This document shows, in pieces, positions 221 to 51,249 of a stretch of DNA of 64,000 nt (positions are counted from its first letter, which is position 1; each line of letters starts with the position of its first letter). The stretch lies in the IMG/VR virus record IMGVR_UViG_3300023283_000176; one strand, written 5' to 3'. Under the pieces are notes generated by a model that was not told where the DNA came from, did not search any database, and saw only the letters and a list, made by a program, of their open reading frames with translations. The stretch is from an uncultured virus (IMG/VR IMGVR_UViG_3300023283_000176). Its lineage: Duplodnaviria; Heunggongvirae; Uroviricota; Caudoviricetes. The position numbers and the translations under genes are program-made.

Positions 221-291
221 TAATGGATGAAAGTTATCTAATCTATCTGTGAGGTCCCCAAGGGTTCCCCGTGATGAAATCCGCCCCAAAA

Positions 292-331
292 AGAAAAACC
301 CTGCAAGTCTGTAAATTGTTGACCTGCAAGG
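292..331 (-). terminator. Terminator-like hairpin downstream of the attP1 tRNA fragment
   Basis: CCCTGCAAGTC...GACCTGCAAGG imperfect stem; T run follows on the minus strand; loop contains TAAATTGTTG like the 27957 hairpin. Confidence 0.55.
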
Positions 332-342
332 CTTTAAGTGTG

Positions 343-390
343 TGGGCGCTACTGGATTCGAACCAGTGACCCCCTGCTTGTAAGACAGAT
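343..390 (-). other. attP core 1: 3' half of tRNA-Val(TAC)
   Basis: Reverse complement ATCTGTCTTACAAGCAGGGGGTCACTGGTTCGAATCCAGTAGCGCCCA gives an anticodon arm (TAC), T arm and 3' acceptor strand, with no 5' half; lies directly upstream of an integrase. Confidence 0.85.
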
Positions 391-2469: not shown

Positions 2470-3729
2470 ATGGCAAATTTCAAGAGGAAAAAATACGACT
2501 ACGTTTTAAACAAACCTACTAACCAGTTAATACAGACGCTTAAACAGAAACCCAGTTTCGTCGGATGGTCGCCTGAGAGGGTGGCAGATTATTTTGATAC
2601 CACAGTTGGCACAGCTAAAAACGCCTTAGCATACCTAACACAGAATGGAACCGAGATAGAAAATGAATCAGTTGAATTTAAAGCTGACAAAAATTTTGAG
2701 AAGAAAGCTGACCAATTTGGTGTAAAAACCGATTATGAACATTTTCTGGACACTCATGGAATTGACCCCGAAGATGTTGTTCAGGTTTATTTCAAAGGTA
2801 ATGGCGATAAAATTGATTTCACGGTCAATACAAGATTCAACCAAGATGAAAAAGATTTGGACGAGCAACGATTAGTTCATTTTTTACAATCTAAAAGATT
2901 TGAATTGCCATTACCGAAAGCACAATGTAAAACATATCCGGACACAATTGCGGTAATTAACCTTTACGATGCCCATGTTGACAAATTAGGGCATCTCGGG
3001 GAAGGTGGTAAATCGGAATTAGAAAGGAATTTGACTGTTTTGAAAGACGAATTTCAGAAAATCCTGGAAAAGGTTTTAAAAGACCAGCCAAACAATATCA
3101 TTTTTCCCATCGGTAATGATTTTTTCAATACCAACGGAAGTGAACCAGCTACGAAAAAGGGAACACCACAAGAAACCTCTATTCATTGGCAAGACGCCTT
3201 TGAAGCAGGCATTGATTTTTATCGTTCCTGTATTGATGAAATTATAAAATACTGTAATGTAACTTTGATTTCAATTTCAGGAAACCATGATTCAGATAAA
3301 ACTTATTATTTGGGTCAGGTTTTAAAAGGCGTTTATGGGAACGAACCCAGAGTGAAAATGGATATGACTAAAAACAATCGTAAATATCTGTTTGAGAGTG
3401 ACGTTTTATTTGGTTTCCAGCATGGTGATATAGCCAAAAATAAAATCCGTAGACTGCCCAATGTTATGGCCGTTGAACAACCTGAAAATTGGGGGGAAGC
3501 GAAGTATCGAGTGTGGTTGCTTGGAGATGTGCACCACAAAGAAAAATATACAACATTTTCTACGTTGGAAGATCAAGGAGTTGAGATCCATTTCTTCCGG
3601 TCAGCTACCAGCGCAGATACATGGCATTATGATCAAATGTGGATTGATGCTAAAAAAAGCATTACTGCTATCGTGTTCCAGAATTCAGCGAAAGATCTAC
3701 ACACATACGAAACTATATTTCAAAACTAA
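2470..3729 (+). CDS. Calcineurin-like metallophosphoesterase
   Basis: Motifs DAH, GND, GNHD, HGD, GDVHH. Confidence 0.85.
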   Translation: MANFKRKKYDYVLNKPTNQLIQTLKQKPSFVGWSPERVADYFDTTVGTAKNALAYLTQNGTEIENESVEFKADKNFEKKADQFGVKTDYEHFLDTHGIDPEDVVQVYFKGNGDKIDFTVNTRFNQDEKDLDEQRLVHFLQSKRFELPLPKAQCKTYPDTIAVINLYDAHVDKLGHLGEGGKSELERNLTVLKDEFQKILEKVLKDQPNNIIFPIGNDFFNTNGSEPATKKGTPQETSIHWQDAFEAGIDFYRSCIDEIIKYCNVTLISISGNHDSDKTYYLGQVLKGVYGNEPRVKMDMTKNNRKYLFESDVLFGFQHGDIAKNKIRRLPNVMAVEQPENWGEAKYRVWLLGDVHHKEKYTTFSTLEDQGVEIHFFRSATSADTWHYDQMWIDAKKSITAIVFQNSAKDLHTYETIFQN

Positions 3730-3738
3730 TTAATTACT

Positions 3739-4128
3739 ATGCCCCAAAAAACAGAAGATAGAGACTATAAGAAAGAATATCGTAGATATCATGGCAAGCC
3801 CGAACAACGTAAACGACGAAGCAAACGCAATAAAGCCAGGCGTAAAATGGCTAAAAAGGGTCGTGTAAAGAAAGGTGATGGTAAAGAGGTTGACCATCGT
3901 GTACCACTCAGCAAAGGGGGTTCAAATCACGAATCTAATCTCAGGGTAACATCACGTAAGGCTAATAGAAAAAAATACGACGGTGGTGGACGTAAACGTA
4001 AAGGTGAACGTAAACGCCGTGCAAACAAAAAATACAAACCCAAAACCGCTTCACAGCGACGTAGGGTCAAGGAAAAAATGACAGCCCGACCACAGTACCC
4101 AAAGAAAAGTAGAATTAAGAATAAATAG
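3739..4128 (+). CDS. Basic HNH endonuclease-like protein
   Basis: EVDHRVPLSKGGSNHESNL HNH motif; very K/R-rich. Confidence 0.8.
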   Translation: MPQKTEDRDYKKEYRRYHGKPEQRKRRSKRNKARRKMAKKGRVKKGDGKEVDHRVPLSKGGSNHESNLRVTSRKANRKKYDGGGRKRKGERKRRANKKYKPKTASQRRRVKEKMTARPQYPKKSRIKNK

Positions 4129-4137
4129 GATATAATT

Positions 4138-4557
4138 ATGCCCGATTTTAAAAAGGACAGAGTAGAAAAAAAGCAACAAAATTTTTCAAAGAATGTAGAA
4201 CCCAGGATTGGAAACGGAGAAGAAAGGAACACAGAAAGACAAATTAAACCTGTTGAAACTAACAGGCGTTCTGTGGACCCAACTCCAAACCCTTCTTTTG
4301 AACACCCTAAAGGACACGTTTCTGCTGGATTTAGAGGTTCAGTGAAACAGGGCGTTTTATCAAGGACTCCCAACAATGCAGTTTTCCCTTCTGGCGATAG
4401 CCAACCAAGACAACCAAATGGTAGCACAAAGCCTGCCAATCTTAGTCGTAGTACCACAAAGAGGTCGAAACTGAGTGGAAGTACGAATGAGGCCAATGTT
4501 ACCAGAAAAGGACGTTTAGTTAAACCCAATGGAAGGGTGAGACGGCGTAATCCGTAA
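4138..4557 (+). CDS. Hypothetical basic, low-complexity protein
   Basis: ORF in operon context, followed by a terminator. Confidence 0.6.
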   Translation: MPDFKKDRVEKKQQNFSKNVEPRIGNGEERNTERQIKPVETNRRSVDPTPNPSFEHPKGHVSAGFRGSVKQGVLSRTPNNAVFPSGDSQPRQPNGSTKPANLSRSTTKRSKLSGSTNEANVTRKGRLVKPNGRVRRRNP

Positions 4558-4570
4558 CATGGGGTATATG

Positions 4571-4602
4571 ATGGGGGGTGCTTCACCCCTCATCTTTTTT
4601 TT
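4571..4602 (+). terminator. Intrinsic terminator
   Basis: ATGGGGGGTG-ctt-CACCCCTCAT followed by a T run. Confidence 0.75.
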
Positions 4603-5893: not shown

Positions 5894-6468
5894 CATGGCC
5901 CCAGTTTTACAAAGATAGGGTGGGTAGCCATCAATACCTACTCTACTTTGTAGACAAATATACCCCTTTTATTGATAAAATAAGTGAGTTGGTAGAAGAT
6001 TATATGTTTGGTATAGGAGAATTTGGTTGTGGGATTGCAACCACTTCAAAAGCCTTACAATACATTGGGTTGCCACATACTCATTACTGTTATGATATCT
6101 GTCCAACAATGTTGTATTTAGCTCGTGAGAACGTATTTCCGGATTTCTATTTTGGAAATTGCGAGACTCGCAAGTGTTTATTCCATTTACATGATATAAG
6201 TAAAAAAATGCCACCTCGACGTTATGACTTAATACATAGTCACGGCGTACTTGAACATTTTTCAGATGTTGAAATACAATCCATCATATATCATCAGCTT
6301 AATATGTCAGATAATATTGTTCATTATGTTCCAGGAGAATACGATGAACCTTCATTTGGAGACGAACGTTTAATGTCTGCATCGCAATGGCGGGAAATTT
6401 TGAAAGACTATCCTGTCGAAGTGTCTCAATTTAATGAAAATGATTTAATGATAACCTCTAAACCCTAA
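5890..6468 (+). CDS. Class I SAM-dependent methyltransferase
   Basis: EFGCGIA motif I; YDLIHSHGVLEHF. Confidence 0.8.
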   Translation: MTWPQFYKDRVGSHQYLLYFVDKYTPFIDKISELVEDYMFGIGEFGCGIATTSKALQYIGLPHTHYCYDICPTMLYLARENVFPDFYFGNCETRKCLFHLHDISKKMPPRRYDLIHSHGVLEHFSDVEIQSIIYHQLNMSDNIVHYVPGEYDEPSFGDERLMSASQWREILKDYPVEVSQFNENDLMITSKP

Positions 6469-9074: not shown

Positions 9075-9251
9075 ATGACAGATAAAGAAGTTGTGCAAAG
9101 TTTACGTGAAATAGCAGACCAAATTGAGGATGGTGCGCCAGTAGAAACCGCTTATTCGAAAGTTTACGGACATAAATACACTGTGCAGGCCACAGTCATT
9201 CAACAAGGCGTAAAAGAATCAAAACAACTAAGAAACATAATAAGCCAGTGA
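9075..9251 (+). CDS. 58-aa hypothetical protein
   Basis: Hand translation MTDKEVVQSLREIADQIEDG...; start abuts the previous stop codon. Confidence 0.55.
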   Translation: MTDKEVVQSLREIADQIEDGAPVETAYSKVYGHKYTVQATVIQQGVKESKQLRNIISQ

Positions 9252-9310
9252 TCATGGGATAGCCACGCTTTTGTACGGCGTGTACGGCGGTTCGATTCCG
9301 CCCACTGGCT
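9244..9310 (+). tRNA. tRNA-Thr(TGT) with a reduced D-arm
   Basis: Acceptor GCCAGTG/CACTGGC; anticodon stem ACGCT/GGCGT with loop TTTGTAC; T arm GGCGG-TTCGATT-CCGCC. Confidence 0.75.
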
Positions 9311-10299: not shown

Positions 10300-11672
10300 G
10301 TTTATACAAAACCATCCTTAGTATAGGCATAAAAATAGGTGACGGGACCCCTCCCGTCGCCATAACCTCTAAACGCCAATACAATATGCTTAAAGATATG
10401 CACCCTTACGGGTTTTTGTCTTAAACGATATGCATGGGTGTTTAATTACTACCAAGATAAATATTTTTTTTATAAAGTCAATGCCGGTTTTAATATTTTT
10501 TTTTAATTGTAAGGAATTGGGCAGGCCCCAAGCAAACCCACCCCTTATCCAACGTTTAGGTTTAGAGGCTATGGCATCTCCTAAATGCCGGGGCAATGAT
10601 AAAAATTCTTTAAACCAATATCTACCCATTTTCCTAAATGTTATAAAAACCAAATTAATGACACTTTCTGCAAATAGTGCCAATAATTAGTCAGCTGTCA
10701 AGTATTACTGGACGACTGCTTTTTAATTCCAACTGATTATATGGTCAGTACTAATCAAATGTCTGTTGCGAGCTACTTCGCAATAGGTTCAACTTTTTTT
10801 GCAACCCACTTCGCAATTGGATTTTCTAAAGTTTATTTAATATGAGAGACTTTAGTAGTAGTAAATGGGTATAATATCGCCTCATGTTAGCAGAATCATG
10901 CTTATTTGCTGTTCTATCCCAATTTTGATACATTACCCTGTTTTTGCTTATTTGAAGCCCTCAGATCTAAAATTTGTGTTTGTTTGTAATTTACGGCAAA
11001 AATGGTCAAAACTTGCCAAAATATGGTGTATGTACTGTTTATATAGTACATTTGACATTGAGGCCTCTTTTAATGCACTGATTTGTTTTTGTTCTTACCT
11101 AATTTTTTTAAGTGGGTGTTTATAGAACAAGGGGAAATAATCTATTCTAAGAAAGTTTGTGAGGTCTTTTACTTAACTTTTTTAAGTGTTTGGATGTTTG
11201 AGCAAAATTTTTGATACGCATTAAAAACGGAACTATCACGCTTGGGGCGGGAGCGGTCGACCCCCGACGTACCCCCACCCTGCGATTTGTTTTTCTCCTT
11301 TCAACTATTTTTTTAGTTTTTTCTCCATTTTGACACTCAATTGTTTCTATATCCTGTATTTTCAACGTTTAATTTATACGTTTCTGTTTTTTATATGTTT
11401 ACCGTTCTTACGATTGTCTTAATATTAATTGTTATGTATTGGATAAGTGATTGATTTCTTATATATATGGTTATATGTTCAGTGAGATCAAGAGATTAGA
11501 AGATTTCATTTTATTGAGCTTATCTGTAAGCCATTGTTTTTATTCTAATAAGTGTGCTCTCAACTAACTTTATAATATGTGACATTTTTTTGTTTTAATT
11601 CTTGGTTTTTTGTCTTATAAGTTCTTGATAATTAACCACTTACAAATTTTCTTTATTTTCCCAAATTCCCTC

Positions 11673-11720
11673 TTGCGTTAGACTTCACTTATGTATATCA
11701 TTATCACAGTTATTTGACAT
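11673..11720 (+). promoter_or_regulatory. Sigma70-type early promoter plus boxA-like element
   Basis: TTGCGT-17 nt-TATCAT (11673-11701), then GTTATTTGACAT (11709-11720). Confidence 0.65.
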
Positions 11721-12310
11721 TCTGAAACGGCACACGTTCCCGCAAGGGAATTATGTAAAGACTGCCATATCTTTACAAAGCTGTTTTAGGTTCTTTCACT
11801 TATTGACGTGTTACAAGCAATGAATGGGCTGTGCACTATTGTATCGGTGTAGATACTCTAAAGTGGATAGTGTCTTAAAGTGACAGTTTAAGACTGAAAA
11901 GATTGTTTACCCGCAAAATGTGGCGGGTTTGGCCATAGAAAGGTAGGATTGCACTATTGCCTACGGTCTATGTGACATTCTATGAAGTGTCCGTGCAACG
12001 GTATCGGACACATAAAATACACTTCTGAATATTGGTTTGCTATTCGCATATCTGAATATAGGGCTGTCGTATTAAAAAGCGCTATTGATAGGAGAAACCT
12101 ATTATATAGGTAGTATCTTAAAAATTGTAGCGGTGGACAAGTGATTAGTAAGGTATCGGATAAGTACTAATACTTTAGTGACAAGTTAAGTAAGATATAC
12201 ACCAGCTTCTGAATAGAAGTAAAAAACTTACTTATATGAACTTGGGTAGTTTGTGGTAACGCAAATGATGCCTGTTTAACGCTTTTGTAAGTTAAATTTT
12301 AAAGCGTTCA
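11705..12310 (+). ncRNA. Candidate large structured non-coding RNA (~600 nt)
   Basis: No credible ORF; more than 12 helices, nested junctions, G-U pairs and GNRA loops between a promoter and a terminal hairpin. Confidence 0.6.
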
Positions 12311-12390
12311 TTTTATATAGTGTGACAGCTATATATTTTCTCTTGTCAAAATGGCAAGTCAAATCAACATAAATAAAACCATACAATACA

Positions 12391-13011
12391 ATGAAAAAAT
12401 CAAAACAGAACAAACGAGACATAGAAAAACGAAACGATGAACTCAAAAGATTGAAAGACTTACAAATAGAAGCACTTAAAGAAGCGCAAAATGTAGATAG
12501 ATCATTATCTAATGTAATGAGAAATTTAATCCGATTGCATGAAAACGATAACAATGCATTTAAATTAGAAGCAACACAACGCACAATTATTGAAAATAAT
12601 CTAATTAGTGCATTGATTCCCTTTATGAAAGGGAAAACGCTTCGTAAATGGAACAGAGAAGAATTAAATTACAACTATTTCCGCATTAATGGTAAAACAG
12701 TGCGGAGAATTCAAACTGAACAGAACAAAAAAGAGAACAAGAATCTTGTAAAAGAAAAAATGCAAGCCATTAGAGACAAATTTGTCTCTGATTTTGGTAA
12801 AGCAACGGGCATCAAAGTTGATGCAAATAAAGTTGATGTTCAACATACTATAGAAACAATTAAACATGAACGAAAATTTAGCATGAGAGAAGTATTGACG
12901 CTTCTTATAAGAGCACAAGCTGAATTTAAAGCACACGGTAATATTAAAAGTACAAGAGCAAACATTGAAGCGGTATTAGTGCCCTTAAAAGCGCAGAAAA
13001 AAAGCGCATAA
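12391..13011 (+). CDS. First early gene; basic hypothetical protein
   Basis: 206-aa K/R-rich ORF. Confidence 0.75.
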   Translation: MKKSKQNKRDIEKRNDELKRLKDLQIEALKEAQNVDRSLSNVMRNLIRLHENDNNAFKLEATQRTIIENNLISALIPFMKGKTLRKWNREELNYNYFRINGKTVRRIQTEQNKKENKNLVKEKMQAIRDKFVSDFGKATGIKVDANKVDVQHTIETIKHERKFSMREVLTLLIRAQAEFKAHGNIKSTRANIEAVLVPLKAQKKSA

Positions 13012-13885: not shown

Positions 13886-14002
13886 ATGTCACAAACAGAA
13901 TACGACGAACTACAAACAGAATACGACGAACTACAAACAGAATACGACGAAATACTAACAGACTTAAACGGTCTTCAAATTTTAGAGGAATATTATGCCT
14001 AA
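13886..14002 (+). CDS. 38-aa acidic micro-protein with (QTEYDEL) repeats
   Basis: MSQTEYDELQTEYDELQTEYDEILTDLNGLQILEEYYA. Confidence 0.5.
   Translation: MSQTEYDELQTEYDELQTEYDEILTDLNGLQILEEYYA
13891..13951 (+). repeat. 21-bp tandem repeat, about 3 copies
   Basis: ACAAACAGAATACGACGAACT x2.9. Confidence 0.95.
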
Positions 14003-14388: not shown

Positions 14389-14553
14389 ATGAATACAATA
14401 GACTTCATTGCAGTGGTATGTTTATTCATCATCACTGCATTTTTTGCGAGGTTCGCAATTCCGCCAAGCCTTGCAAATATATACATCGCTGGCGGTATCA
14501 TAATAATATCCTATCACACACTAAAAAAGGTAACAAAATGGCTTACACAATAG
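14389..14553 (+). CDS. 54-aa two-TM micro-protein
   Basis: Hand translation MNTIDFIAVVCLFIITAFFARFAIPP... Confidence 0.5.
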   Translation: MNTIDFIAVVCLFIITAFFARFAIPPSLANIYIAGGIIIISYHTLKKVTKWLTQ

Positions 14554-15074
14554 ACGATATGCGTATTTACGTAGCCTCACTACATGATTATGTATCGGGG
14601 CGATTGGTTGGCAAGTGGTTTGATCTTACTGACTATGTTGACAAACCCGAGTTAATGGATGCTATCCAAGAATACCTGCAAGAAGTAACCCATGCATTCG
14701 ATGATGGAATCGTACGAGAAGAATGGGGGTATTATGACTATGAGGGTTTTCCTCGTATATTTTATTCAGAGTACCACATTCCGTTTGATCTGTTTTACAG
14801 GTTAGACAGAGAAGGTACGCACGATATGGATATATACCTTATCTATGCAGAATATTTTGGTATAGAAGATGCAGATGATATCATCAAAGAAGTAAATGAC
14901 AACTACTACGGTGAGTATGACTCTATGTTAGAGTTTGCCGAAGAATGGTTTGAGCAAACAGAAGCACACATGGTGCCTCAACATCTGCGGTTTTATTTTG
15001 ACATGGAACAGTACGCACGAGAACTCATGTTCGACTTCGATTTTATAGACGGACACGTATTTTTAAAACATTAA
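14538..15074 (+). CDS. ardA: ArdA antirestriction protein (DNA mimic)
   Basis: RIYVASLHDYVSGRLVGKWFDL, EEWGYYDYEGF, YFDMEQYAREL...GHVF; highly acidic. Confidence 0.9.
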   Translation: MAYTIDDMRIYVASLHDYVSGRLVGKWFDLTDYVDKPELMDAIQEYLQEVTHAFDDGIVREEWGYYDYEGFPRIFYSEYHIPFDLFYRLDREGTHDMDIYLIYAEYFGIEDADDIIKEVNDNYYGEYDSMLEFAEEWFEQTEAHMVPQHLRFYFDMEQYARELMFDFDFIDGHVFLKH

Positions 15075-20038: not shown

Positions 20039-20414
20039 ACAAAAAAACGAACTGTTAAAATTAGCAGATGAACTTGAATCAGGTGATATCGAATTCGATG
20101 AATTCAGGTTTGATCGTTTTACAGGCGTACTTAAATGTGGAACTGTGGGGTGTGCACTTGGTCACTTCGCCGTACGTCATCCGGAATGGGAGATTGATGA
20201 AAAAGGTGTGCCTTATTATACATCAATAAATGGCGTTGGTCCAATTGGGGACGCATCCAAATATTTTAGTCTGCCATACGAATTGGCAGAATTAATGTTC
20301 GTCCCCGAAGTAGGACAAAAAAGTATCATCGAACCATTGCCCGCCGATGCTACACCTGGGCAAGCGGCAAGGCAGATAAGAACCGTAATAGACCACTATG
20401 AAAATAACTATTAA
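20025..20414 (+). CDS. Hypothetical phage protein
   Basis: CGTVGCALGH motif. Confidence 0.7.
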   Translation: MMNNKQKNELLKLADELESGDIEFDEFRFDRFTGVLKCGTVGCALGHFAVRHPEWEIDEKGVPYYTSINGVGPIGDASKYFSLPYELAELMFVPEVGQKSIIEPLPADATPGQAARQIRTVIDHYENNY

Positions 20415-24902: not shown

Positions 24903-25523
24903 ATGAATAAAAAAACCTCGACAACACGAAATAAAAAAGACCCTTTTAAGGGCGTACGTGACCCACACAACACTTTGGGAATGGAAAAAGAAGAATATGA
25001 AAAATATAAAGCAGATCTAATTCAAGAATATGCGGATAATCCAAAACTTTCCATGAATTATATGGTTAACCGTGAACAAGAAAAAGGAATAAAACTATAT
25101 TATTCTCGTTTTCAACGTTGGTTGCGTGCCGCAGAAGATGTTGAAGTTCGTGGCCGTTCTCAAGCACGTAAAGAAATTGGAGAAGAACGTGGGATGTCTT
25201 ATGGAATGTACGTTCGTATGGACCAAATTGAAGATTTAAAAAAGTTTGAAAACCAAAGCGCTTTAGTTCGAATGGGACTCGATTTGGTTTTAGGAAATCG
25301 GACCCCAAATTGCATTCTGTTCCTGGGTGAAGGTAAAAATGTAATTTTCATAGACAATCAGAAAAAGGAAAGAGTTGAAGCCTATGTGGTTGGCGATCTA
25401 ACTAAAATGGAAAAGAAAGTAGTGCAAACATTAATCAATAAAGCAAATGAATACGGAACAGAATATATTGCGAAGTTCGCAATTGAAAATGAATTAAAAT
25501 ATTACGGTGCCAATGAAAATTAA
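24903..25523 (+). CDS. Hypothetical protein
   Basis: 206-aa ORF divergent from the terS-like gene. Confidence 0.7.
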   Translation: MNKKTSTTRNKKDPFKGVRDPHNTLGMEKEEYEKYKADLIQEYADNPKLSMNYMVNREQEKGIKLYYSRFQRWLRAAEDVEVRGRSQARKEIGEERGMSYGMYVRMDQIEDLKKFENQSALVRMGLDLVLGNRTPNCILFLGEGKNVIFIDNQKKERVEAYVVGDLTKMEKKVVQTLINKANEYGTEYIAKFAIENELKYYGANEN

Positions 25524-25977
25524 TAAAAGCAACATACACAGTAAACAAGTATTACCAAGTGATGAATATTCGTTCACTATCACACAAGCATATTTCCATG
25601 AAAGAGTTGATTTTCCGTTATTAGTTTTGTGTCACACTGTTGACACTGGTGAATTTGCATATCAACACGCTTTAGCTAAATTCAATCTCACTATAGGTTC
25701 TGGTCAAGCACGATTGAAAAGATTCTCCGATAACATTGGGTTCTGTTGGTTTGTAGATGAAACAACAGATCCCCTTTTCACAGAACAGTTTATTGCTTTG
25801 CGTGGTGTTATGAAAGTAGAGCAATACATGAATCGACAAAAGAAAACCATTGAAACCAAAATCATTGAATGGTCTCCTGCTGTCGGTGATCCTGAGTATA
25901 ATGTCACAAAAGACAAGGACACAGAAGTATTTAAAACCTCAAAACAAAAAGGTAAACCCAAACTACCAATACAATGA
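25513..25977 (+). CDS. Hypothetical protein (possible OB-fold)
   Basis: VLPSDEYSFTITQA beta-rich pattern. Confidence 0.55.
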   Translation: MKINKSNIHSKQVLPSDEYSFTITQAYFHERVDFPLLVLCHTVDTGEFAYQHALAKFNLTIGSGQARLKRFSDNIGFCWFVDETTDPLFTEQFIALRGVMKVEQYMNRQKKTIETKIIEWSPAVGDPEYNVTKDKDTEVFKTSKQKGKPKLPIQ

Positions 25978-27904: not shown

Positions 27905-27949
27905 GTTTTGTTGCCCTATGGTTACCCTAACTATTATATTGGGCATAAA

Positions 27950-27991
27950 CAAAAAAACCCTGTGAGAAGATAAATTGTTGTCTCACAGGGT
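27950..27991 (-). terminator. Terminator downstream of the attP2 tRNA fragment
   Basis: ACCCTGTGAGA...TCTCACAGGGT 11-bp stem; T run on the minus strand. Confidence 0.75.
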
Positions 27992-28000
27992 GTTAGGGTT

Positions 28001-28047
28001 GAGCGGGAAACGGGATTCGAACCCGCGACCCCCACCTTGGCAAGGTC
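28001..28047 (-). other. attP core 2: 3' half of tRNA-Gly(GCC)
   Basis: Reverse complement GACCTTGCCAAGGTGGGGGTCGCGGGTTCGAATCCCGTTTCCCGCTC; no 5' half. Confidence 0.85.
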
Positions 28048-28194
28048 ATAAATGGGGTTATCATTAATTCTAAATTGTGGTTGAAATTGTTGTTTACTCT
28101 TGATTTAGATAGATTTTGGTTTTATTTTATTCTCATTAATTATTGGGTTTTGTTACCCTATGGTTACCCTAAAACAAAAATGAGATACCATATC

Positions 28195-29403
28195 ATGCCA
28201 AAATTAAACTTTACTTATTTACATAAAAAGAAATTAGACGTGCAAAAACAAACTGATTTTTATGATACTGTTACCCCTGGTCTTGGACTCAGAGTTAACC
28301 CCGGTGGAAGTAAAACGTTTTTTTATCGGTATCGTCACAATAATAAAAATCGACGCTATACAATTAATCGTTACACAAGCAATTTTACCGTAACAGACGC
28401 AAGATCCAAAGTAGATGAGCTTCGTAGTAAAGTACGAAATGGTAAAGACCCTGTAGGAGAACAAAAAGCAAAAAAAGAAAAACCAGATTCTATAAATTTT
28501 CAAAAGCTACATGAAATCTACCAAAAAATACACTTGGTTAATTTAAGAGAAAGTACACGCAAGTATCATAATTGGGTAATGTCTTCTAAAATTTTACCTA
28601 TACTTAATGGATACAGTATCAATGAAATCTCAAAGAAGCATATCGTTCGTGTATTGGATAAAATTGCAATAAACGACGATGCACAAACCACAGCCAATAA
28701 AGCTCGATCTCGTCTGCATCATGTGTTCGAATTCGGTATCCAGCGTGGTTATTTGACAATTAATCCCGTCTCAGGCACAAAGCCATACAAAGGTGGCAAT
28801 AATCAACGGGAAAGGTACTATCACCAAGATGAAATTAAAAAGATATGGCAAGCTGTTGAAAACCTGAATGAACCTGTGCAAAGTTATATGAAGATCATCA
28901 TGCTCACAGGACAGAGACGAAGCGAAACACTTTATATGAAATGGGAAGATGTCCATCACATATCAGATAATGATTTTGAGGGTTGGGTATGGGTCATTCC
29001 AAAAGAGTTAGCCAAGTCTAAACGTGAACACACTGTCCCACTCCCACCCACAGCGTTTGAAGTCATTGATGGGTTGAGACAGGACTACAACCCTTATGTG
29101 TTCGCGTCTCGATTCGAGGACGATATTCCAATAGGACTCAAAACTGTGAAACGAGCAGTGAAAAATATCAAAGACAATGCGGTGGTAGATTTCAGATTAC
29201 ATGACATGCGTCGTACAGTGGCGACACAGATGGCAAAACTTGGAACCTCGGCCGATGTGCTTTCAAAAATACTGAATCACACAACCGGGGGGTCAGGTAG
29301 CCTCGTGACACGTATATACAACCGCTATCAATACAGAACAGAAATGTTAACAGCCCTGACTAAATGGGCAGACGTAATTCAACAATTGCGAGACTCGCAA
29401 TAA
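28195..29403 (+). CDS. int: Tyrosine integrase 2, paralog of integrase 1
   Basis: GLGLRVNPGGSKTFFYR; TGQRRSE, HDMRRT, LNH, IYNR; start MPKL chosen by alignment to int1. Confidence 0.95.
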   Translation: MPKLNFTYLHKKKLDVQKQTDFYDTVTPGLGLRVNPGGSKTFFYRYRHNNKNRRYTINRYTSNFTVTDARSKVDELRSKVRNGKDPVGEQKAKKEKPDSINFQKLHEIYQKIHLVNLRESTRKYHNWVMSSKILPILNGYSINEISKKHIVRVLDKIAINDDAQTTANKARSRLHHVFEFGIQRGYLTINPVSGTKPYKGGNNQRERYYHQDEIKKIWQAVENLNEPVQSYMKIIMLTGQRRSETLYMKWEDVHHISDNDFEGWVWVIPKELAKSKREHTVPLPPTAFEVIDGLRQDYNPYVFASRFEDDIPIGLKTVKRAVKNIKDNAVVDFRLHDMRRTVATQMAKLGTSADVLSKILNHTTGGSGSLVTRIYNRYQYRTEMLTALTKWADVIQQLRDSQ

Positions 29404-35149: not shown

Positions 35150-35483
35150 ACGAGGTACACTCGTAGCAGACCCTGAAATTAAAACAACCCAAAATGGGAA
35201 ACAAATGGCCATCTTTTCCCTTGCGGAAAACCATTCAAAACCTGTCCATGACGAGAAAGGTGATATCGTTGATTGGGAAGAAACAGGAACAAGTTTCTTT
35301 GATTGTATCGCCTTTGGGGAAATGGCTGAGGAAATCAGTTATTTCGAAAAAGGTGAACACATTGAAGTTACCAAAGGATTTTGTCGACAGAATAAATGGG
35401 AAGATCAAGATGGAAACACACGATATGATTATGATTTTATCATAAACGATTTTGAACAATTCATACCCAAATCACAACAATAA
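35133..35483 (+). CDS. ssb: Single-stranded DNA-binding protein
   Basis: GTLVADPEIKTTQNGK...FSLAEN...FFDCIAFG...WEDQDG. Confidence 0.9.
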   Translation: MNFQLRRGTLVADPEIKTTQNGKQMAIFSLAENHSKPVHDEKGDIVDWEETGTSFFDCIAFGEMAEEISYFEKGEHIEVTKGFCRQNKWEDQDGNTRYDYDFIINDFEQFIPKSQQ

Positions 35484-38091: not shown

Positions 38092-38450
38092 AAGGTAAGC
38101 AAATGACATTATTTCTCAGTTATTTTGAAAAACATACAGACGATCCACTTATCAAACACATGGTAAAAAGACGGATTCGTAATTATAGTTTAGGATTACG
38201 AAGGCATATAGAAATTATGGTCGACCGAGCAGATCCACCAAAAATGGAATGGAAACTTTATATATTAGCCATAATGAAATTTTTTCCTACGTTGCATGAA
38301 CCCATCCTTAAAGTAATGGGAGAAAAAGTGGAAGATCAATGGAAATTAAGAGAAGATGAGATCACCAAAAAATTCAAAAAACTTTTAACTGATCTCAATC
38401 TTCCTATTCCTCGTATTCTATCGAATCAAGCAGACCCAACGGGGGTATAA
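38088..38450 (+). CDS. Hypothetical protein
   Basis: Last gene of the plus-strand operon. Confidence 0.6.
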   Translation: MKGKQMTLFLSYFEKHTDDPLIKHMVKRRIRNYSLGLRRHIEIMVDRADPPKMEWKLYILAIMKFFPTLHEPILKVMGEKVEDQWKLREDEITKKFKKLLTDLNLPIPRILSNQADPTGV

Positions 38451-41400
38451 ACTGTTGGGCCACATTAAAGCCAACTCTCTCTACAGACCGATCATCTTCC
38501 ATCACACCAGTTAAAAATCTGGCAACGCCGGCTATATCTCCCGATATCATGGAGATCCCTGCTGGTGTTGGATCATTAAACCTATGCATACCCGCCGCAA
38601 GTGGACCACCATAACCGGCATTTACAAAACCATCAACAAGGGCCTGTTCCATCCCATACATATACATCATCAGAGATGCCATATCTTTGATATGTTTGGC
38701 GTCTCCGATCCTCACTTGGTCATCTACGGAATCGTTCGCATTAAGTGTAATATCTTCGATATTTAAACTTTCGACCACACCGCCTCGGCCAGTAAAACCA
38801 AAAGTGTTCAATTCGTCCTGGGGACTATCATCATCAAAAGCGAAATTTAGAACTGCTAATGAAGCGAATTTCCGCATGGAATCCATACTCCAAGTAAACA
38901 TTTTGTTCAATCCGGATGCGCCCACTAACCTCACAAAAGAATCAAGAGATCGGAATGGAAGATCATCAATAGCTTGATCGCTCCAACCTAATTTCTTGAA
39001 CCTTGCTCTCCTTTTCTTAGGACTCATAAATCTTGTGGCTAATAAATTGTACATCAGATTCGTTTTAGACGAAGCCTCTGGGTGTTTATCTGTAAATGAT
39101 CGTAATGGATTCAAGAACCTCCTTTCAACTGTCTGCATAGACTGGTTAAATGAAAAATTCCAAAATGTAGTAGCTACTCTTGCAGTCGGATTATGCCACT
39201 CAGGTCTGAACATCTGATTTTTACCAGTGTATGTTTCAGTAGCTCTAATAATGACTCTTTCAAGCACATCTTCTACAAGTGGGTCCATATCGCTACTTAA
39301 AAAACGTTTGCCGTTACGACCAGCCTCTGTTAGCCTTTCATTTAAATCAGGTATTCGATCCACAACATCGTCAATTTCACTTCTTGCGATGCCCAACATT
39401 TCAAACTGTGCTTGCACATCTCCACGACTAACACCTCTTATTCCATTACCATCTCTTATCTGTCTCCAATTTTTAACCAAATCATTTAACATGGTCATGT
39501 GGGCCATCCAATTCATGGTCAAATTGACTTCATTTTTTGTACGCAAATTGCCTAATGTTAATTTAATACCCGCATTTTCAGTTAAACTGCCTAACGGTGA
39601 TTCTCTGAGTTGTTTAGGTACTAAATTAGGTACATCAAATTTTTGAGTCCAAAATCTTGAAAGTGATCGGCTGAAACTATTAAAACCACCTACAAAATTT
39701 AAAGCAGGATCGTCCGAACTAAAAGCGTGTTTTGGTGCATCATCGAAATCTGCCAACATAGCTTCCACTTGTCGAAATACGACCCCAAGTTCTTCACTAT
39801 TTTGGATTAAATTAGACAAATTGTTCGTAGGTGCTACCCTTCCCAATACACGCATCACATCCTTAAAACTGGTTAACTGTGAAGTGGTAATAAAAGTTTG
39901 GAAAGTGTCCAATAAAGCAATGGAAGTGGCATAACGTCCATAAAAAAGGTTTCTAATGCCCTCAGATATTTGCTGATTACGCAACTTACGATCCAAAAAA
40001 TCTTTTTTCTGTTTCGCTGTGGAAAAATTAGCAAGCTCGGGAATAATTCTGAAAACTTCATTATAAGCTGTTTTCATGCGCTCAACATGCGATCTGGCAT
40101 CTGACTGTCTGAAACCTGTATCCAATAAATCACTCTCCATTTTATTGAATTTTTTCCCTAATTCAGTTTCGTCAAGAATGTTAAATTTCAACGCTTCAAT
40201 TCTCTTTGCCACATCCCCCGCATAACGATCAAGAATAACACTTGGGTCTGTCTCTCTCCATCGTTGATCAATTAAGAAATTACGTGGGTTCTCCAAAAAA
40301 CTGGAATTCTTAACAAAATCCCCAGTTAACATTAGATCATAAAAATCATCATATTCTTTATTATTTGCTAATCGAATGACATTAAAAGTTTGGTTATTAT
40401 CACCTTGTAAATTTGTTAGCGGATTATCGTCACTATCCTCAATGACAAACCGTTTTACTTTTCGGACCCGTCCATCACCCATCGGTGTTTCTTTAACTAC
40501 TTCTTTGATGACACCACGATTCAACAACCCTTGCGTAAAATTATCATCTGTGAAAGCACCAAAATTTCTTTCAAAAGCCTGTTGGGCTTCCCTGGGCACT
40601 CTTTGTGAATTACCTATGGCGTTTTTCAAATGAAGAATGGCTTTTTCCTGGGTCTCAAACTCAAATGTTTTTACTTTTTGAGTGTCAGGATCATATTTTT
40701 TAACAGCATCATCCTCAGCATTTAAGTCCATAAAGGACTGTCTTAATTCAGCCTCAAAATTTTCCTCTCCCATTTCTTTTCTGGCTCTGCCAATTTTAGA
40801 ACGAGAGGACATTTGTGGATAATAAAATTCTTCAAGGCCCTCAGTAAACCGTAATTTAACATCTCGAATCTTGTCCAACCTTTTAACTGCCGGATCAAAT
40901 CTTTTTGCGTTTTTAAGAACTTTCTTCACATTTTTGTCATCAAACGTTTGAATGTACTCATCCCATGTACCCTTAAATTTAAGAAAGAAATCATCTACCA
41001 GAATTTGATATTGATTTTGATTCATAGTAAATCTGGAATCACCAGACTTAACCGTTCTCATTCTTTCAGTCATCCACACACGAGAAGTTTCCTGTCTTTC
41101 AAATCCATTCAGTAATGTTCGATGTTCGCTGGCAAGTTCCTTGAATCTGTTACGCATAGATTTGATAGCATCTACAACCCTTTCGTCATTAAGCATCTTC
41201 TCATCAATCTTCTGGAAAGTGCGTCCATTGGGGGAATTGTATTGCTGATCTACACTTTTTTGAGTTTCCACAATTCGAGCAGTGCCGTCCTCATTGAACT
41301 CAAGTTTGCTATTCATCAACCTGTCAAGTGATTCATTAAAGGCTCTTGTTCTTGACCTTTCTCGTTGCGAACCTCGCAATTGGCGGGTCCCATTTGAAGT

Positions 41401-44400
41401 TGTTATTTGATCAGGCACAAATTCGTCAAGAATTTCAGGGCCTACCCTTAAAAAAGTATTGAAAGCATTAACACCATGTTTCTCATTAAACTCATCACCA
41501 AAACTGTTTCGCATTTGTTGAATTTTGGCAGGTAAGTTTGTCAAGAAATCACTGAACTCCATTACAGATTGCACACCACTTCTTTGTGCCATTGAAAAAG
41601 TGGATTGTACAAATTTATTCTGTACCATCTTACGAGTGGCTTCTTGTAATCCGTTTCCTGATTCAAGAATATCTCTGACATTTTGGTTGAATCTTGAAAA
41701 AATGGGGTCGTCGGGTGAAAGTAAAACTCCTCTGGATTGGGCTTCTTTGACTAAAGTTTCTTTTTCGCCTTTACGTAATGTCTGCACTGCACTTGGGTCT
41801 ATTGTGTCGTCAATAGAATCAACAAAACCCTTTTTAAGTGTGGCCACTTTTCTATATGCTCTGGGTGTGTATGCCTGAAAACCTTTCCGTAAAAGACCGC
41901 CAACAATTAAGGCACCAAGTACACCCTGAAACGAAAACAAACTCGCTTCTTGTGTTTCAAATTCATTTAAATCTATATCAAGAGCTTCTTCGGCGACCAT
42001 AATGCCAAGACCGGCTGTGGCCATTGCAAATGGTTTGTGGATTTTTGGAATTCCAGGGGTGGGTCTGACTTGTCTCACGCCTTGTAAATAAGATTCAACT
42101 GTTTCTCTCGAAGTTGAAGCCAGATCACGTCTGAGTTTTAAAATTCTGCCACTATTATTGCTTTGAACAGCGACCATGAACTTCCCATCTCTTTCAACTA
42201 TATTGTAACTTTTATCTACACCAGATGTATTGAATGTTTGTTCTTTTCCTAATGACCCATCATCTTTCACAAGTCTATAAGCAAAATTACCATTTTTTGT
42301 GCCTGTGTGTTTTGCATTACGTCGGTTTCCATCTGAATCTCTCAATGAAAAATAATCACCAACTTCCAAATCATTAGTTTGGACCGCTGGTGTGTCAGGA
42401 TCGTATTCTTTAGTTGCCCCATTTACTGGGGTTTCCAATTTAGAATTGATCTCTGCTTCAATGCGAGCATTTTCAAATCCATTTGATCGAAGATCGACAA
42501 TAACTTGTTGAGCGTGTTTATTCACCGTTTGTGGTTCAATTTGTTTTAACGGAACAGGTGGGTTAGCTCCTTGAGTAATATAGGAATCTGTGGGGCGTGT
42601 TTTTTCAAGTTTAGATGTGTCTGTGATGTCAGTATCTTTGAATTCACTTACATCTTTTAGTTGATCCTTAGAAATTAACTTAATGAAACGCCGACCTTTT
42701 GGTCCAACAAATTCGATGCCATCAAACTGGCCCTCATATACATCTCTTGGTTCAACAACTTCGTCCGCTGTTTTCCGCATAGAACGTTGAACATTTGCAA
42801 CTAAACTGCCTTCTCCTACCTCAACAATCTTACCTGAAAAATCTGGAAATGGGTCTTGAACTTGTGCTATTCTTACACGTTGTAACGCACCTGTGGTTGT
42901 AGTCAACTCATTGGGAGAAATCCTTTGATAAAAAGGATTCAGTTTCATTTGACCATTGATCTCAATAAAGCGGTCAGTAGGAATGGTTTCGTCCAATCCG
43001 CCATTCGGGTGGGTAGGTACTTCATTCACACGTATATAATCTACTGTCCCATCAGGATTTTCTGTATAAAAAATGTCTCCTTTTTTACCGGGTTTTTTAG
43101 GATTAAATTTTCGAATGGCTCGACCACCATTTAATTGATTATAGTCGGTTAACATGGAACCGCCTGCAACCCTTAGTACGTTTTCAGGTTCTAACTCATC
43201 CATTGAATAACCAACATTCTCAACAAAACGTCCTTGCAGACCTGTTTCTTGTAAAGTGGGGTCTGTTTTTTTGGCTTTGTTGACCACTTTTCGATAAGAT
43301 TGTCGGATATTTTTGCTGGTAATTTTTGTGATCTTATCTAAAGCAGAACCAAAATTTTTATCTATCCTTTCTAAAAGTGTTTGCCTTTCTAATTCGAGAG
43401 TCTTGGTTTTTAACTCTTTTGTTTTGGCTTTCAGATCTACTTCGCCTCTGGTAAGACCTTCTTGTTCCAAAGTTTGTAAACGTTGGGAAAGTCTGTCAAT
43501 CGCAGAATCAATTTCAGGTTCATTAAAATTCCTAATTGTATTCTGTGCATTTGGATCTTCTTTTAATCCGTTCAGTGTTTGTATTCTTTGCTGAATAGCA
43601 TCTGAATCGTTGATATCAATTAAATCATCATTGTCATTGGTTAACCACCTACGAACACCGGGGGGGGCATCCTCAAAAAATGAATTAGTGGCATCCAAAT
43701 CAGAGAGTCGTTGTTGTAAAAACAGACTTGCGTTGATACGTTCATCAATTTGCTTTTCCAATGCGTCCCGGTTCGATTCTTTACCGAAGTTTAGACGATT
43801 ACGCAGATCTACTAACTGATTGTCTACTCGTTCCATGACCGAAGCAATGTTGGCACGGTCGTTTAAATTAAGTTCAAATCTGTTGTTTAAAAATTTCTCT
43901 GCTTTTTCTGCTTCCTGTCTTAAAGTGTTTTCGTCGACCTTTTTTAATCGAATCTTTTGTGCCTTTCTACCTTTTGTTGTGTCAAGTTGGTTTTCGAGAA
44001 ATTGAACAACTTTATTCAGTTCTTTGATTTCTCTTTCGTTCGCGCTTTTAATGGAAGCATCAGCGGTCTCAGCATTAGCACGTCTGTTTAAATCGACTAT
44101 CCGATCTTCAACTCTACGAATACCATTTCTCACGGAACTTGGGCTATCAAAATTTACTTCTCCTATTTTTTTGACATTTTGTTCAAAGAAAACTTTACCA
44201 TCGCTTATATCCGCTTTCACAGAGGCTAAATCAGCTTCGGGTGTGTTCTCACCTTTACCTTTAGACACTCTGGACTCAGTAGCGTCCACAGGTGCACGAA
44301 ACAAACGACCATCAATGTCTTGCAATACAAATTGATCTCCAATAATTGATCTTATTGTGCCACGCCTACCATCAAAGACTCTTTGTTCGCCAAAGTGTTC

Positions 44401-47400
44401 TTCAAAAAAATCGTTGGCTCTACTATTGCTTTCCAAATCCCCCGTTCTCTCACTGGCTAAAAAACGATTCAATTCCCTTTGTTTGTCCACTTCTCCTGCG
44501 TTGGCTCTCATTCCTTCAACCAAATCAGCTATCCACTCATTTGGTTTAATTTCCATAACTTCGTAAAGTTCTTTTCCATTCACAGTAACTTGCTGTACTC
44601 GTGAATTAGGAATATCTGAGGCAATATCTACCGCTTCTGCTTTGCTCATTTGAAAAGCACCGCCTGAATTGGTTTTCTTTTCAATATCGACTTCTTCTAA
44701 ATCACGTAAAGCGTTTATGAATTTATTATAACCCTTTCCATCCATAATCTGTGCCATATTTGCGGACACATTCTTCCAAAATAATTTAGTAAAGGACTCG
44801 CTTAAAAGATCAATGCTATCCGCATTTAGAACATCCCCCCTTTCATTTCCAAACAGTGTATTAGAAGAACCCACATTCTTTTCATATTCTGTAATGGTGT
44901 CCCTCATTTGTCCTTTCAGGTCTTTGACCAATGGTTTGATGTTGGTCACAAAATCACTTGCGAGGTCATCCATTGTAACCTGATCTTCTTGAACGCTTTT
45001 AGCAATTGCTTGGCCAGCGCTTTGGACATTCGATTCAAGATCTTTTCTTGGCATTTCAGCCAAACCTGTTCTCATTTCTTCAATGAAACGTCTGTAATCT
45101 GGACTAAAGGCTTCTCTAAATTGATCAGTTTTAATAGGTTTGCCTGTTTGCGGGTCTACTCTCAAACCTGAAAATTCTTGTCCGGCTAATTTGAAAAGAC
45201 TGTTTTTACCAAATCTTGCACCACCAATAACAGAATCAAATAAAATTCCAAGTGTTTCCTCAGCTAAAACATTCACACCAATTCTCATAAGTGGTGCGTA
45301 CCATGCCTTGTCGCCGAGATTTTTGAACCAACCCTCAACATCAGTATCGTAATCAAACACAACGTCGTTACCAAGATCTACCAAACCAGACCCAAGCAAA
45401 TTGTCTTTATCACTAAATTCGTCTTGAGGTAATTCATTGATAATATTATACAATGCGCCACCTGCTACAAAATCTAACGTCTGTGCTGTGCCTGAATTTG
45501 ATTGTTTAAGGCCGGAAGCTAATTTTCTTAATCTCAATTCAGAGGCTTTGTAAAGTCCTGCACCAGAAGCGTTTTTAGGTGGTTTCAAAAACATTTTGGC
45601 TCTTTGTAAATTTGTGGCTTTACGAATGCCAGACAAATGTTTTGCATTTCGGGTAGCTACTCTTTGTACAATGCTTTTATCAATTTGTTTACCAAGAGCC
45701 TTATTAAGTGGTCGGCCCATGCCTTTAAATAAAAATATGGAAGAAACCAATGGTGCTACAATTTGAGTGGCTTGTTGTATAGAAGTCAATCCTGCGTTGG
45801 GTGCATACGTGGATTGAGTAATTTCAGCAATGTCTTGAACCATTTGATCCGAAAATTGACGCAACTCGCCTTTAGATTTAAATTCTCCGTTTTGGATTCC
45901 ATTAGACATAGCTTCAACAAAATCACTCCCCTCACCTGTGAGACGGAAAAACGTTTTTCCGACAAAATCATTAAGCATAGATGTAACTGAATTCAGAGCA
46001 ACAGTTCCTGTATTCCAAACTGCCCCACCAAGAGTTAAAATGTCATTATTTAAAACATAGGAACGTTCAACATTGCCCTCTCTTTTTGTAAGTGGTTCAT
46101 CCGTAGGAATTTGCCCAACTCGGTCTCTTACAACTCTTTCTTGAACAACATTGCCTTCATCATCAAAAACGCGCTCTACTTCTTGAATGTCAGCTAAAGA
46201 AAATAAACGTCGTGTGGCTTCATCCTGTAAACGTTCAATCCGGTTAGGCTCCAAAACCATTTTCTCTCCATCCTCGCTATTGCGTACAAACATATCAAGT
46301 CCATTCCGATATGTCAGTAAATCAGTAGCAAGTTTTACCATTGCAGGCGCAGAATCATAATCGAACTCATATAAAGGATTGCCTTCTTCGTCCTCTTTAA
46401 AACCATTGTTCTCAAAAGCGTGTACTTGAATAGTTTTAAAAAGGTCGGCAACTTTAACGTCCTCATGTTCGTCGTCCAACAATTGTTTTGAAAAAAGTCT
46501 TAGAAAATTGTCATAAGTAGCACTGTCATTAAATGAATTAGTGTCCTCATCAAATAAAGTGTGTACTAAATCTTCGGGGGTGACAATATCATTATCAGCT
46601 ATGAAACCTTTTAAGTCATCTACGGCGATATTGTCTTGTAACTCATCCATCCTTTCTTTATCGTTAAAAGATGTAAGGTTAGACACAAATTCACCAAAAA
46701 AAGATGATTCTTGACCTGTAGTTTCAGTTTCTTTTTGTCCGACTTTTTCAATCAAAGACGCGACAGCCAAAGCATCATTTTCACGAGTGCCTGGTTGTAT
46801 TTCCTCGTTTTCGTGTCCATCAATAAATGGTGCGGTGAAACCATTATGGATAGCAGGTTTAGACTTTTTGGGTGTGATTGGTTTGAATTCTGTGTTGTTG
46901 ACAACGCTTTTAGCGTATTCTAATGGAGTCTGTCCATCTTGTGTAGGTGAATTCAAAAAACGAATGGCTTTTCTTGCAAAACGGCTTTGTTCTTCAAATG
47001 GAACATCAGTGTCCGTCTCTTGGAAAAAATTGATATAATCAGTTAAGCCTTCTTTCCCAAAACGGTCAAAAATGGCGAACGCTTCCGCGTATCTTTTTGG
47101 AAAACGATTTGCCATTGAAGGATCAATTATGCCCGCATTGTGTTTATTGGTAAGTTGTTCATTGAATTCATTCAACTTAACATCGAGAACTTGTTGTTGT
47201 AATTGTTGATCATTGTTAAATAAATCTCGAAAAGCTGTTTCATTCATATCCAACTTTCCGTCTTTATTTACTAAACCCCCAAACTGTTTTGCATTTTTCT
47301 CAATCAAACTTTGAGCACCATTAACAGTAGTCAGATCCATTTCCTTTTTGGTTTTCTCAAGTCCTGACCTCAAACTTTTACGTACTTCTTCCCCTGAATA

Positions 47401-50717: not shown

Positions 50718-50759
50718 TGTTAAAATTGTTTAGGGTTTAGAGGTTGCTATAAAGATAGT

Positions 50760-50790
50760 AAGGATTCCTCAGAAAACCTGAGAAATCCTT
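50760..50790. promoter_or_regulatory. Inverted repeat (terminator or operator)
   Basis: AAGGATTCCTCAG-aaaac-CTGAGAAATCCTT. Confidence 0.55.
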
Positions 50791-50808
50791 GACAACAGAA
50801 TAAAAAGT

Positions 50809-51239: not shown

Positions 51240-51249
51240 GTTGTCTCCG

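Follow-up and report, generated by a model that had tools for sequence, protein, structure and literature searches.

The window analyzed here is the whole 64,000-nucleotide (nt) stretch of DNA in the IMG/VR record IMGVR_UViG_3300023283_000176, derived from an uncultured virus. It is phage-like, with a GC content of about 36%, and belongs to a contig of 73,950 bp, as given in a cluster record for one of its proteins. Its genes occupy the + strand between 526 and 38450, and those from 38404 to the window end are on the - strand. Within the + strand gene block lies a gap of 1.7 kb (about 10691..12390, +) that is poor in open reading frames (ORFs), and the genes on both of its flanks are all encoded on the + strand. 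The longest believable ORF in this gap has fewer than 45 amino acids (aa), and an 86-aa frame at 10865-11125 looks like noise. The right-hand third of the gap is the interval 11705..12310, for which a first-pass annotation had proposed a new structured RNA of about 600 nt; the gap exceeds the feature noticed there. The description of the interval as free of ORFs is nearly correct, although frames of 43 aa (11982-12113, +) and 31 aa (-) exist, both at chance level.

Hairpins and predicted folds of the interval

All helices that had been listed for the interval were found in place, including the nested helix CTGAAACGGC/GCTGTTTTAG, which encloses a hairpin with a GCAA loop as well as TGTAAAGA/TCTTTACA. 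To count hairpins, we considered non-overlapping, perfect Watson-Crick stems of at least 6 bp with loops of 3-16 nt in the region 11700-12339. This region contains 9 such hairpins compared to 2.36±1.33 (maximum 7) in 400 dinucleotide shuffles, none of which reached 9. Stems of at least 7 bp were found 6 times, versus 0.68±0.83 (maximum 4) and again 0 of 400 shuffles reaching this number. Among 397 overlapping 640-nt bins in the window (mean 2.7, standard deviation 1.6) the region is the densest. Counts of 8 were also reached, by bins that overlap the interval and by single bins at 12481 and 60641, and hairpins are fairly common throughout 9-15 kb. The excess of hairpins exceeds chance and is a real feature of the sequence.

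Two further properties of the loops were recorded. Among tetraloop hairpins with five-pair stems, GNRA loops were found in 2 of 9 on the + strand of the interval, in 0 of 7 on its - strand and in 14 of 551 window-wide. An identical GTGACAG loop is carried by two hairpins with unrelated stems (11872-11894 and 12314-12335), and of the 5 TGACA words on the interval's + strand, 2 form a hairpin loop.

A three-way junction at 11721..11790 (+), supported by fold prediction and a shuffle test, is the only clearly strand-specific RNA-type fold in the interval. Its closing helix of 11 bp needs G-U pairs. The two arms are GUUCCC-GCAA-GGGAAU, with 6 bp and a GCAA loop, and UGUAAAGA-(8-nt loop)-UCUUUACA, with 8 bp, and the linkers measure 4, 2 and 2 nt. 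The minimum free energy (MFE) of the junction is -26.7 kcal/mol with pair probabilities of 0.96-0.97. In a test of single segments based on 400 paired shuffles each, the junction segment 11719-11792 gave z-scores of -5.38 on the + strand and -1.80 on the - strand, and its strand difference (z -3.18) was equaled in 0 of 400 shuffles.

Downstream of the junction the + strand carries a number of further elements. A bulged hairpin (GCUGU/AUAGU, CACU/AGUG, GUAUC/GAUAC) is followed by GUCUUAAA-GUGACAG-UUUAAGAC at 11828..11894. The part from 11909 to 12011 comprises an ACCCGC/GCGGGU hairpin, CAUAGA/UCUAUG around GUAGG/CCUAC, a copy of ATGTGACATT (11970-11979) and a GUGUCCG/CGGACAC hairpin. The middle part at 12014..12142 has no excess structure, with pair probabilities of 0.2-0.5. 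It is followed at 12144..12266 by an AUUAGUA/UACUAAU hairpin, a nested element composed of CAAGUU/AACUUG, UAAGUAAG/CUUACUUA and GCUUCU-GAAU-AGAAGU, and a GUUUGUG-GUAA-CGCAAAU hairpin. At 12278..12320, AACGCUUU-(15-nt loop)-AAAGCGUU and the subsequent CAUUUUAU may form a weak terminator-like end; the hairpin at 12278-12308 has a U-rich tail and was missed by the terminator scan, as its 15-nt loop is beyond the limit of the scan. The last hairpin, UAUAUAG-UGUGACAG-CUAUAUA (12314..12335), overlaps both a TATAGT-TGACA site and TGTGACAGCTATA.

The segment test yielded graded results for these elements. The z-scores for the + and - strands were -3.41 and -2.68 for 11826-11896 (57 of 400 shuffles with as large a strand difference), -2.41 and -2.69 for 11903-12013 (209 of 400), -0.77 and -0.19 for 12014-12142 (111 of 400), -1.20 and +0.20 for 12143-12242 (31 of 400), and -2.77 and -2.02 for 12236-12337 (47 of 400). 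Folded as a whole, the + strand of the interval reached -166 kcal/mol (z -3.67), an energy that none of 120 shuffles equaled; with 20 shuffles the z-score was -5.26. Both the MFE structure and the centroid contain a long-range helix, 11796-11816/12125-12144, with -17.8 kcal/mol and a mean pair probability of about 0.8, which would close a 350-nt domain. However, it was equaled by 10.2% of 950 control segments, each of which was free to pair 150-520 nt downstream. A multi-domain fold is thus disfavored, since the only long-range helix of high probability is matched by controls and the center lacks excess structure.

Two population variants were found at the locus. At 11945 an A>G exchange turns an A-U into a G-U pair, which keeps the pairing on the + strand only. 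A T>C exchange at 11689 is located inside the spacer of the promoter-like sequence TTGCGT-17-TATCAT.

Several 74-nt windows elsewhere fold more strongly than the junction, with z-scores from -5 to -6.2. These are 27925-28010 (+), 279-352 (-), 38497-38570 (+), 35293-35366 (+), 63219-63316 (-), 20245-20318 (+) and 5905-5978 (+), of which at least those at 27925 and 279 are intergenic.

Promoter-like motifs and a leader word

The sequence TTGCGT-17-TATCAT, downstream of which the first-pass annotation placed the structured segment, is present at 11673-11701 (+), but only 3 of the 6 positions in its first hexamer agree with TTGACA, and the consensus scan did not pick it up. The string GTTATTTGACAT (ATTTGACATT at 11712..11721, +), regarded as boxA-like in the first-pass annotation, comes third among the four copies of ATKTGACATT. 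This motif occurs 4 times in the window versus 1.22 expected, always on the + strand (11050, 11577, 11712 and 11970). A composite motif, TATA[AG]T-N0-5-TGACA, occurs 3 times versus 0.85 expected for both strands, and all three sites are on the + strand in the 1.7-kb gap. These chance figures flatter the motifs, because the motifs were spotted before they were counted.

The three composite sites are candidate rightward promoters. TATAGT-N4-TGACA at 11042..11057 (+) overlaps one ATTTGACATT copy. TATAAT directly followed by ATGTGACATT at 11571..11586 (+) is located about 135 nt upstream of the junction, and TATAGT-TGACA at 12316 (+) lies 56 nt before the next gene. If these sites act as promoters, as the motifs suggest, rightward transcripts would start near 11052, 11580 and 12325, and the interval would fall between the second and the third site. 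TGTGACAGCTATA is present at 12321 and has a second copy in the following intergenic gap (13028), and ATGTGACAT is a 9-bp near-palindrome.

A number of other signals were considered and rejected. The Bacteroidota -7 box TAnnTTTG gave 80 matches in the window versus 81.7 expected, with 0 in the interval. For (G/T)TGACA as a -35 box, only the site at 13029 has a -10 box at a distance of 16-18 nt. Iterons or short internal repeats are not indicated, as the interval contains 13 repeated 8-mers versus a mean of 11.8 and 30% of bins equal that. The word GTATCGG occurs 3 times in the interval and 8 times in the window versus 3.5 expected, a number reached by 6 of 100 shuffles.

A word of a different kind marks the genes of this phage. 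AACCTCTAAACC(C) has 38 matches in the window at up to 2 mismatches versus 5.7 expected, and 0 of 100 shuffles reached 38. About 27 copies precede a start codon by 3-16 nt on the coding strand, often after a GC hairpin. The extended consensus of this 12-16-nt word is near (A/T)TAACCTCTAAACCCCAAtAcAATG, and the copies range from 4669 to 36449 on the + strand and from 50734 to 57796 on the - strand. This leader word is not Shine-Dalgarno-like and is closer to an anti-Shine-Dalgarno sequence in appearance; possible roles are a translation signal specific to the phage, a promoter with a very short leader or a processing site. In 10691-12390 there are 0 copies even at 3 mismatches, which supports the non-coding status of the gap. 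Pairing of an RNA from the interval with the leader word was considered and rejected, the best duplexes (-13.6/-14.1 kcal/mol) being no better than the background (mean -14.2). The first leader word (9313) directly follows a tRNA-like gene at 9244-9310 (+), which scored 27.5 bits with the Rfam tRNA model (gathering score 29) and was not called by ARAGORN. Its cloverleaf fold has a very short D arm and, as read from the fold, a UGU anticodon.

The leader word was also sought outside the window. Scans of IMG/VR gave 31 and 29 single hits, of which the 31 resembled conserved coding sequence or chance matches and the 29 were single copies; five candidate records carried one copy each. No cultured phage or IMG/VR contig with multiple copies was found. 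The metagenome matches listed for the 16-nt pattern were mostly degenerate telomere-like CCCTAAA heptad arrays on unrelated contigs of 28-57% GC (loci L100, L120, L132, L137, L145, L146, L158 and others). The only phage relative found among the matches listed was a metagenome contig of 1,615 bp (L178). It carries two leader-word copies, each after ...GCAAT and before ATG, and encodes a 92-aa stretch with 55% identity to ORF 25507-25977. A literature search on the leader word and on phage motifs of non-Shine-Dalgarno type retrieved no pertinent report.

Genomic setting, relatives and known systems

Named protein families in the window comprise two tyrosine integrases, an exonuclease, MazG, a dNMP kinase, an Erf-like and a UvsX-like protein and a helicase, as well as a family-B DNA polymerase with at most 34% identity to Salinibacter phages. 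An anti-restriction-family gene (14418-15074; phrog_2059, E 2e-26) is located 2.1 kb downstream of the interval. The - strand block encodes tail-fiber-like proteins, an SU10-adaptor-like protein and lysis proteins. Most likely, the genome is that of a novel, podophage-like virus, with the gap at the head of an early-type block of genes.

Directly downstream of the gap, a gene at 12391..13011 (+) that lacks the leader motif encodes an orphan protein of 206 aa. Its sole match among 5.8 billion proteins searched was itself; no PHROG or Pfam family was assigned, protein atlas matches were viral hypothetical proteins only, and tblastn against phages was empty. T-rich DNA within the gap, at 11080-11320 (+), contains three direct repeats of 34 nt, which are degenerate (68-74% identical to the reference copy). 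Among them is a GC-rich island of 45 nt (11240-11285), odd in a phage of 36% GC. It was rejected as a terminator or attP site, since its folding was no better than that of shuffles. Gene 13995 is closely preceded by a tandem repeat (13891-13962; 21-nt unit, 3.4 copies, 96% match), which overlaps with a frame of 38 aa.

The two tyrosine integrase genes are located at 526-1713 and 28075-29403 (+), the second amid the replication block, and no att site was identified. An integrase search in GTDB genomes gave 4 loci of 26-28% identity in unrelated taxa. An ORF of 3121 aa in the - strand virion block (38404-47769) had no PHROG, Pfam, PDB or phage match and contains the word D[FYW]DxD once (DYDTD, residue 806). 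In its 965-aa neighbor (57795-60692, -) the word reads DFDPD (residue 493), and this ORF matched the crAss muzzle family below threshold (23.3 bits versus a cut-off of 27).

As the first-pass annotation had stated, the interval could not be assigned to a known RNA family. With the 4227 models of Rfam 15 there were 0 matches at gathering thresholds over the window, so the interval does not belong to GOLLD, ROOL or another curated family. At E<=10, the region 11400-12500 gave 4 matches far below gathering scores, none on the + strand of the interval. The same region retrieved nothing by blastn from 50,697 phage records. Searches of IMG/VR via relatives of the 206-aa gene, the anti-restriction gene, a 515-aa gene and the family-B polymerase were likewise empty, and the exact 29-nt junction word had no match in IMG/VR. 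The 51 IMG/VR loci around relatives of the dNMP kinase showed no nucleotide or profile match and no synteny, with at most 2 of 52 window proteins per locus; 117 metagenome loci likewise contained no nucleotide or profile match to the interval. A covariance model of the junction, built from one sequence entered twice, found only itself in 500,265 bases, with no second copy in the window. The phage as a whole has no close relative in INPHARED or IMG/VR.

The closest parallel in setting comes from the crAss-like Cellulophaga phage phi14:2. It is reported to have two long intergenic regions in its early block that are transcribed rightward above most genes, and these long non-coding RNAs (lncRNAs) occur from the earliest time point, persist and have no known function (bioRxiv 10.1101/2020.03.07.982082). 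In the phi14:2 record (100,418 bp) we found an ORF-free gap at 2905-4601, about 1.7 kb, so that both phages have an ORF-free gap of roughly this size inside a rightward early block of a podophage. One 606-nt part of the phi14:2 gap folded with z -2.49, the other with z +0.17. In contrast to this likeness in arrangement, blastn and nhmmer gave no sequence similarity to the interval, the junction model had no match in the whole phi14:2 genome and no shared proteins were found. Transcription has been shown for phi14:2, whereas our interval is known from sequence alone. A search for the composite motif in phi14:2 was discarded, since its 1 forward match, inside the lncRNA gap, was exceeded by the 2 and 3 matches of the reversed control pattern. 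Literature searches on early structured phage lncRNAs returned only unrelated subjects.

For virulent Pseudomonas phages, non-coding RNA candidates derived from 5' untranslated regions are reported, which are short and structured and originate upstream of a gene, in the stretch from a promoter to a premature terminator (PMC10914365). Promoter- and terminator-like motifs likewise bracket the structured stretch upstream of gene 12391. However, the Pseudomonas phage RNAs measure about 90-210 nt, are mapped by experiment and show conservation within genera, whereas the interval spans 600-730 nt, is delimited by sequence motifs and has no relatives. The bracketing motifs, site 11571 and hairpin 12278-12320, were not listed by the consensus scan. 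GOLLD and ROOL resemble the interval in their size of about 600 nt, the phage setting and the many hairpins, but the interval has no Rfam match and its global fold is unsupported.

The lambda nut and HK022 put sites are promoter-proximal, and put has two adjacent stem-loops, similar to those at 11736-11777. In the interval these are enclosed by the 11-bp helix, unlike in put, and unlike nut the boxA-like word is a local 10-mer with two of its four copies upstream of the proposed promoter. Among the neighboring proteins scanned with PHROG and Pfam there was no antiterminator family. The boxA/Nus antitermination and decoy ideas of the first-pass annotation have no support beyond position. In the early left end of T7-type phages, tandem promoters for the host polymerase precede the first anti-restriction gene. 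The gap resembles this arrangement in its promoter-like sites of the same direction spread over about 1.3 kb of non-coding DNA and in the anti-restriction-family gene 2.1 kb downstream. It differs in that a -10-like hexamer is followed by TGACA, without a -35 box and not in the sigma-70 pattern, and in that the sites are motifs only.

Readings of the interval

We tentatively favor the reading that the interval gives rise to a rightward non-coding early RNA, in which a 5' junction is followed by local hairpins acting on stability, processing or attenuation of the early transcript. The excess of hairpins, the + strand fold, the junction, the GNRA loops and the absent coding signals are consistent with this reading, as are the one-way clustering of motifs, the flanking + strand genes, the anti-restriction gene downstream and the pairing kept by the 11945 variant. 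We infer transcription, transcript ends, early timing and function from these features. The RNA would be about 0.6-0.75 kb long and encoded on the + strand. It would start at the -10-like/TGACA site at 11571-11584, or at a weaker site just before 11712, and would end at the weak terminator-like hairpin 12278-12308, just before the site at 12316 that would serve the next gene. It would open with the compact 70-nt three-way junction, and the remainder would be a chain of independent local hairpins rather than a single globular fold. It would most likely act in the housekeeping of early expression, as a stable structure at the 5' end, by offering points of processing or attenuation, or by yielding small RNAs from its 5' part.

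Several observations weigh against such an RNA. That the + strand folds better than all shuffles agrees with the earlier expectation, but the - strand also beats its shuffles (z -2.67 with 20 and -2.61 with 120 shuffles). The energy difference between the strands is -40.2, compared to a shuffle mean of -33.9 with a standard deviation of 6.5 (z -0.98), and 18 of 113 paired shuffles were as extreme. Since shuffles folded on both strands show a similar difference, the strand preference of the interval is mostly a matter of G+U composition. In four of the six sub-segments, the + strand shows no folding advantage over the - strand beyond that due to composition. Sliding windows of 150 nt gave z-scores of -0.5 to -3.1 in the interval and down to -5.2 in neighboring coding DNA, and about 10 other sites in the window have 74-nt folds at z <= -4.6. 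Most stems are perfect Watson-Crick palindromes, which would fit sites at the DNA level equally well. The candidate promoters lack a -35 box at the usual distance and were not listed by the sigma-70 scan, which itself found 6 sites versus 10.2 in shuffles, and the retrospective counting of the motifs noted above adds to this. The variant 11945 A>G comes from a single contig at a depth of 2.9. Neither phages nor IMG/VR nor metagenome loci provided a homolog of the interval, so that neither covariation nor conservation lends support. The runs carrying the stretch are three DNA runs of one study, one of which may be its source, with no RNA run listed. Hence, of the structured RNA of about 600 nt originally proposed, the hairpins and the 5' junction are borne out, whereas the global fold and the structure of the middle part are not. 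The evidence falls short of the claim of a new 600-nt structured RNA, and the feature is a fair candidate.

The main rival explanation is a control region at the DNA level in which palindromes and TGACA words are binding sites on double-stranded or transiently single-stranded DNA and any RNA is incidental. Variants of this explanation include early promoters arranged in tandem together with operators, hairpin promoters used by an injected polymerase, and an origin of replication or packaging. The nine Watson-Crick palindromes score alike on both strands, the - strand folds with z -2.6 and the strand difference over the whole interval is not significant. The motifs also reach into unstructured T-rich upstream DNA (11042, 11571) and TGTGACAGCTATA recurs at 13028, which indicates that they track non-coding DNA and not the hairpin-rich part. 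The near-palindrome ATGTGACAT, the GTGACAG loop shared by unrelated stems, and the degenerate 34-nt direct repeats and T-rich tracts at 11080-11320 fit as well. The 3121-aa virion-block protein without a family match could be taken as the injected polymerase, but it matched no polymerase family in PHROG, Pfam, PDB and phage comparisons. Regularly spaced iterons are missing, 8-mer repeats are at background, and (G/T)TGACA has a -10 box at 16-18 nt at 13029 only. Since, in addition, the best-supported element, the junction, needs G-U pairs and is strongly strand-specific, we consider control at the DNA level somewhat unlikely. It is unlikely that the interval is a spacer without its own function, left by decayed genes or a recombination scar, with hairpins as leftover terminators or a by-product. 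Such a spacer would agree with the orphan status of the region and of the downstream gene, with nothing being conserved, with local folding z-scores like those of coding DNA and with the hairpins scattered over 9-15 kb. However, the hairpin count was not reached in 400 shuffles, the motifs are clustered in one orientation and no decayed leader motifs were detected. Moreover, phage genomes seldom keep 1.7 kb without function.

The idea closest to the first-pass annotation, one large, globally folded RNA of about 600 nt that acts in trans as a scaffold, or as a decoy or sponge displaying several UGACA words in its loops and linkers, appears quite unlikely to us. The fold of the whole interval beats all shuffles, the long-range helix is present in MFE and centroid structures, two GNRA loops occur, and TGACA is found five times on the + strand with two copies as hairpin loops. 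Promoter-like and terminator-like signals bracket the interval, which could therefore be a gene of its own. On the other hand, the long-range helix is equaled by 10.2% of the controls, the center at 12014-12142 is unstructured and the strand difference is not significant; an Rfam family, a second copy in the window, a covariance-model match elsewhere and homologs were all lacking. Even less probable is that very small proteins are encoded, for instance by the 43-aa CxC...H frame at 11982..12113 (+), which is probably no gene. Its 2 matches in 1.84 billion representative proteins (E 7e-8 and 2e-7) involve proteins of 566 and 1611 aa with internal repeats, which align to different halves of the ORF. 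They are sums of weak repeats, with 11 of 28 identities in the best single segment. The frame has no Pfam family and no leader motif upstream, and by our estimate an ORF of 43 aa is expected by chance in 606 AT-rich bases.

The boldest reading is that the interval constitutes an RNA gene of its own, about 600-730 nt long and expressed at the onset of infection, whose product would open with the three-way junction, expose five or six (U/G)UGACA words in hairpin loops and linkers, and serve a host or phage RNA-binding protein as a scaffold or sponge. We regard this as decidedly unlikely; if true, it would represent a new class of large phage non-coding RNA in a lineage without known relatives. 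At present the interval is an orphan candidate in an uncultured phage and is to be taken as a lead and not as a result. The leader word before about 27 genes may be a more testable novelty than the interval itself, and the 70-nt junction provides a defined element open to probing. If the interval is transcribed, it would constitute a second, unrelated example beside the unexplained early lncRNAs of phi14:2. Such RNAs may then recur in the entry-proximal region of podophages whose hosts do not rely on Shine-Dalgarno sequences.

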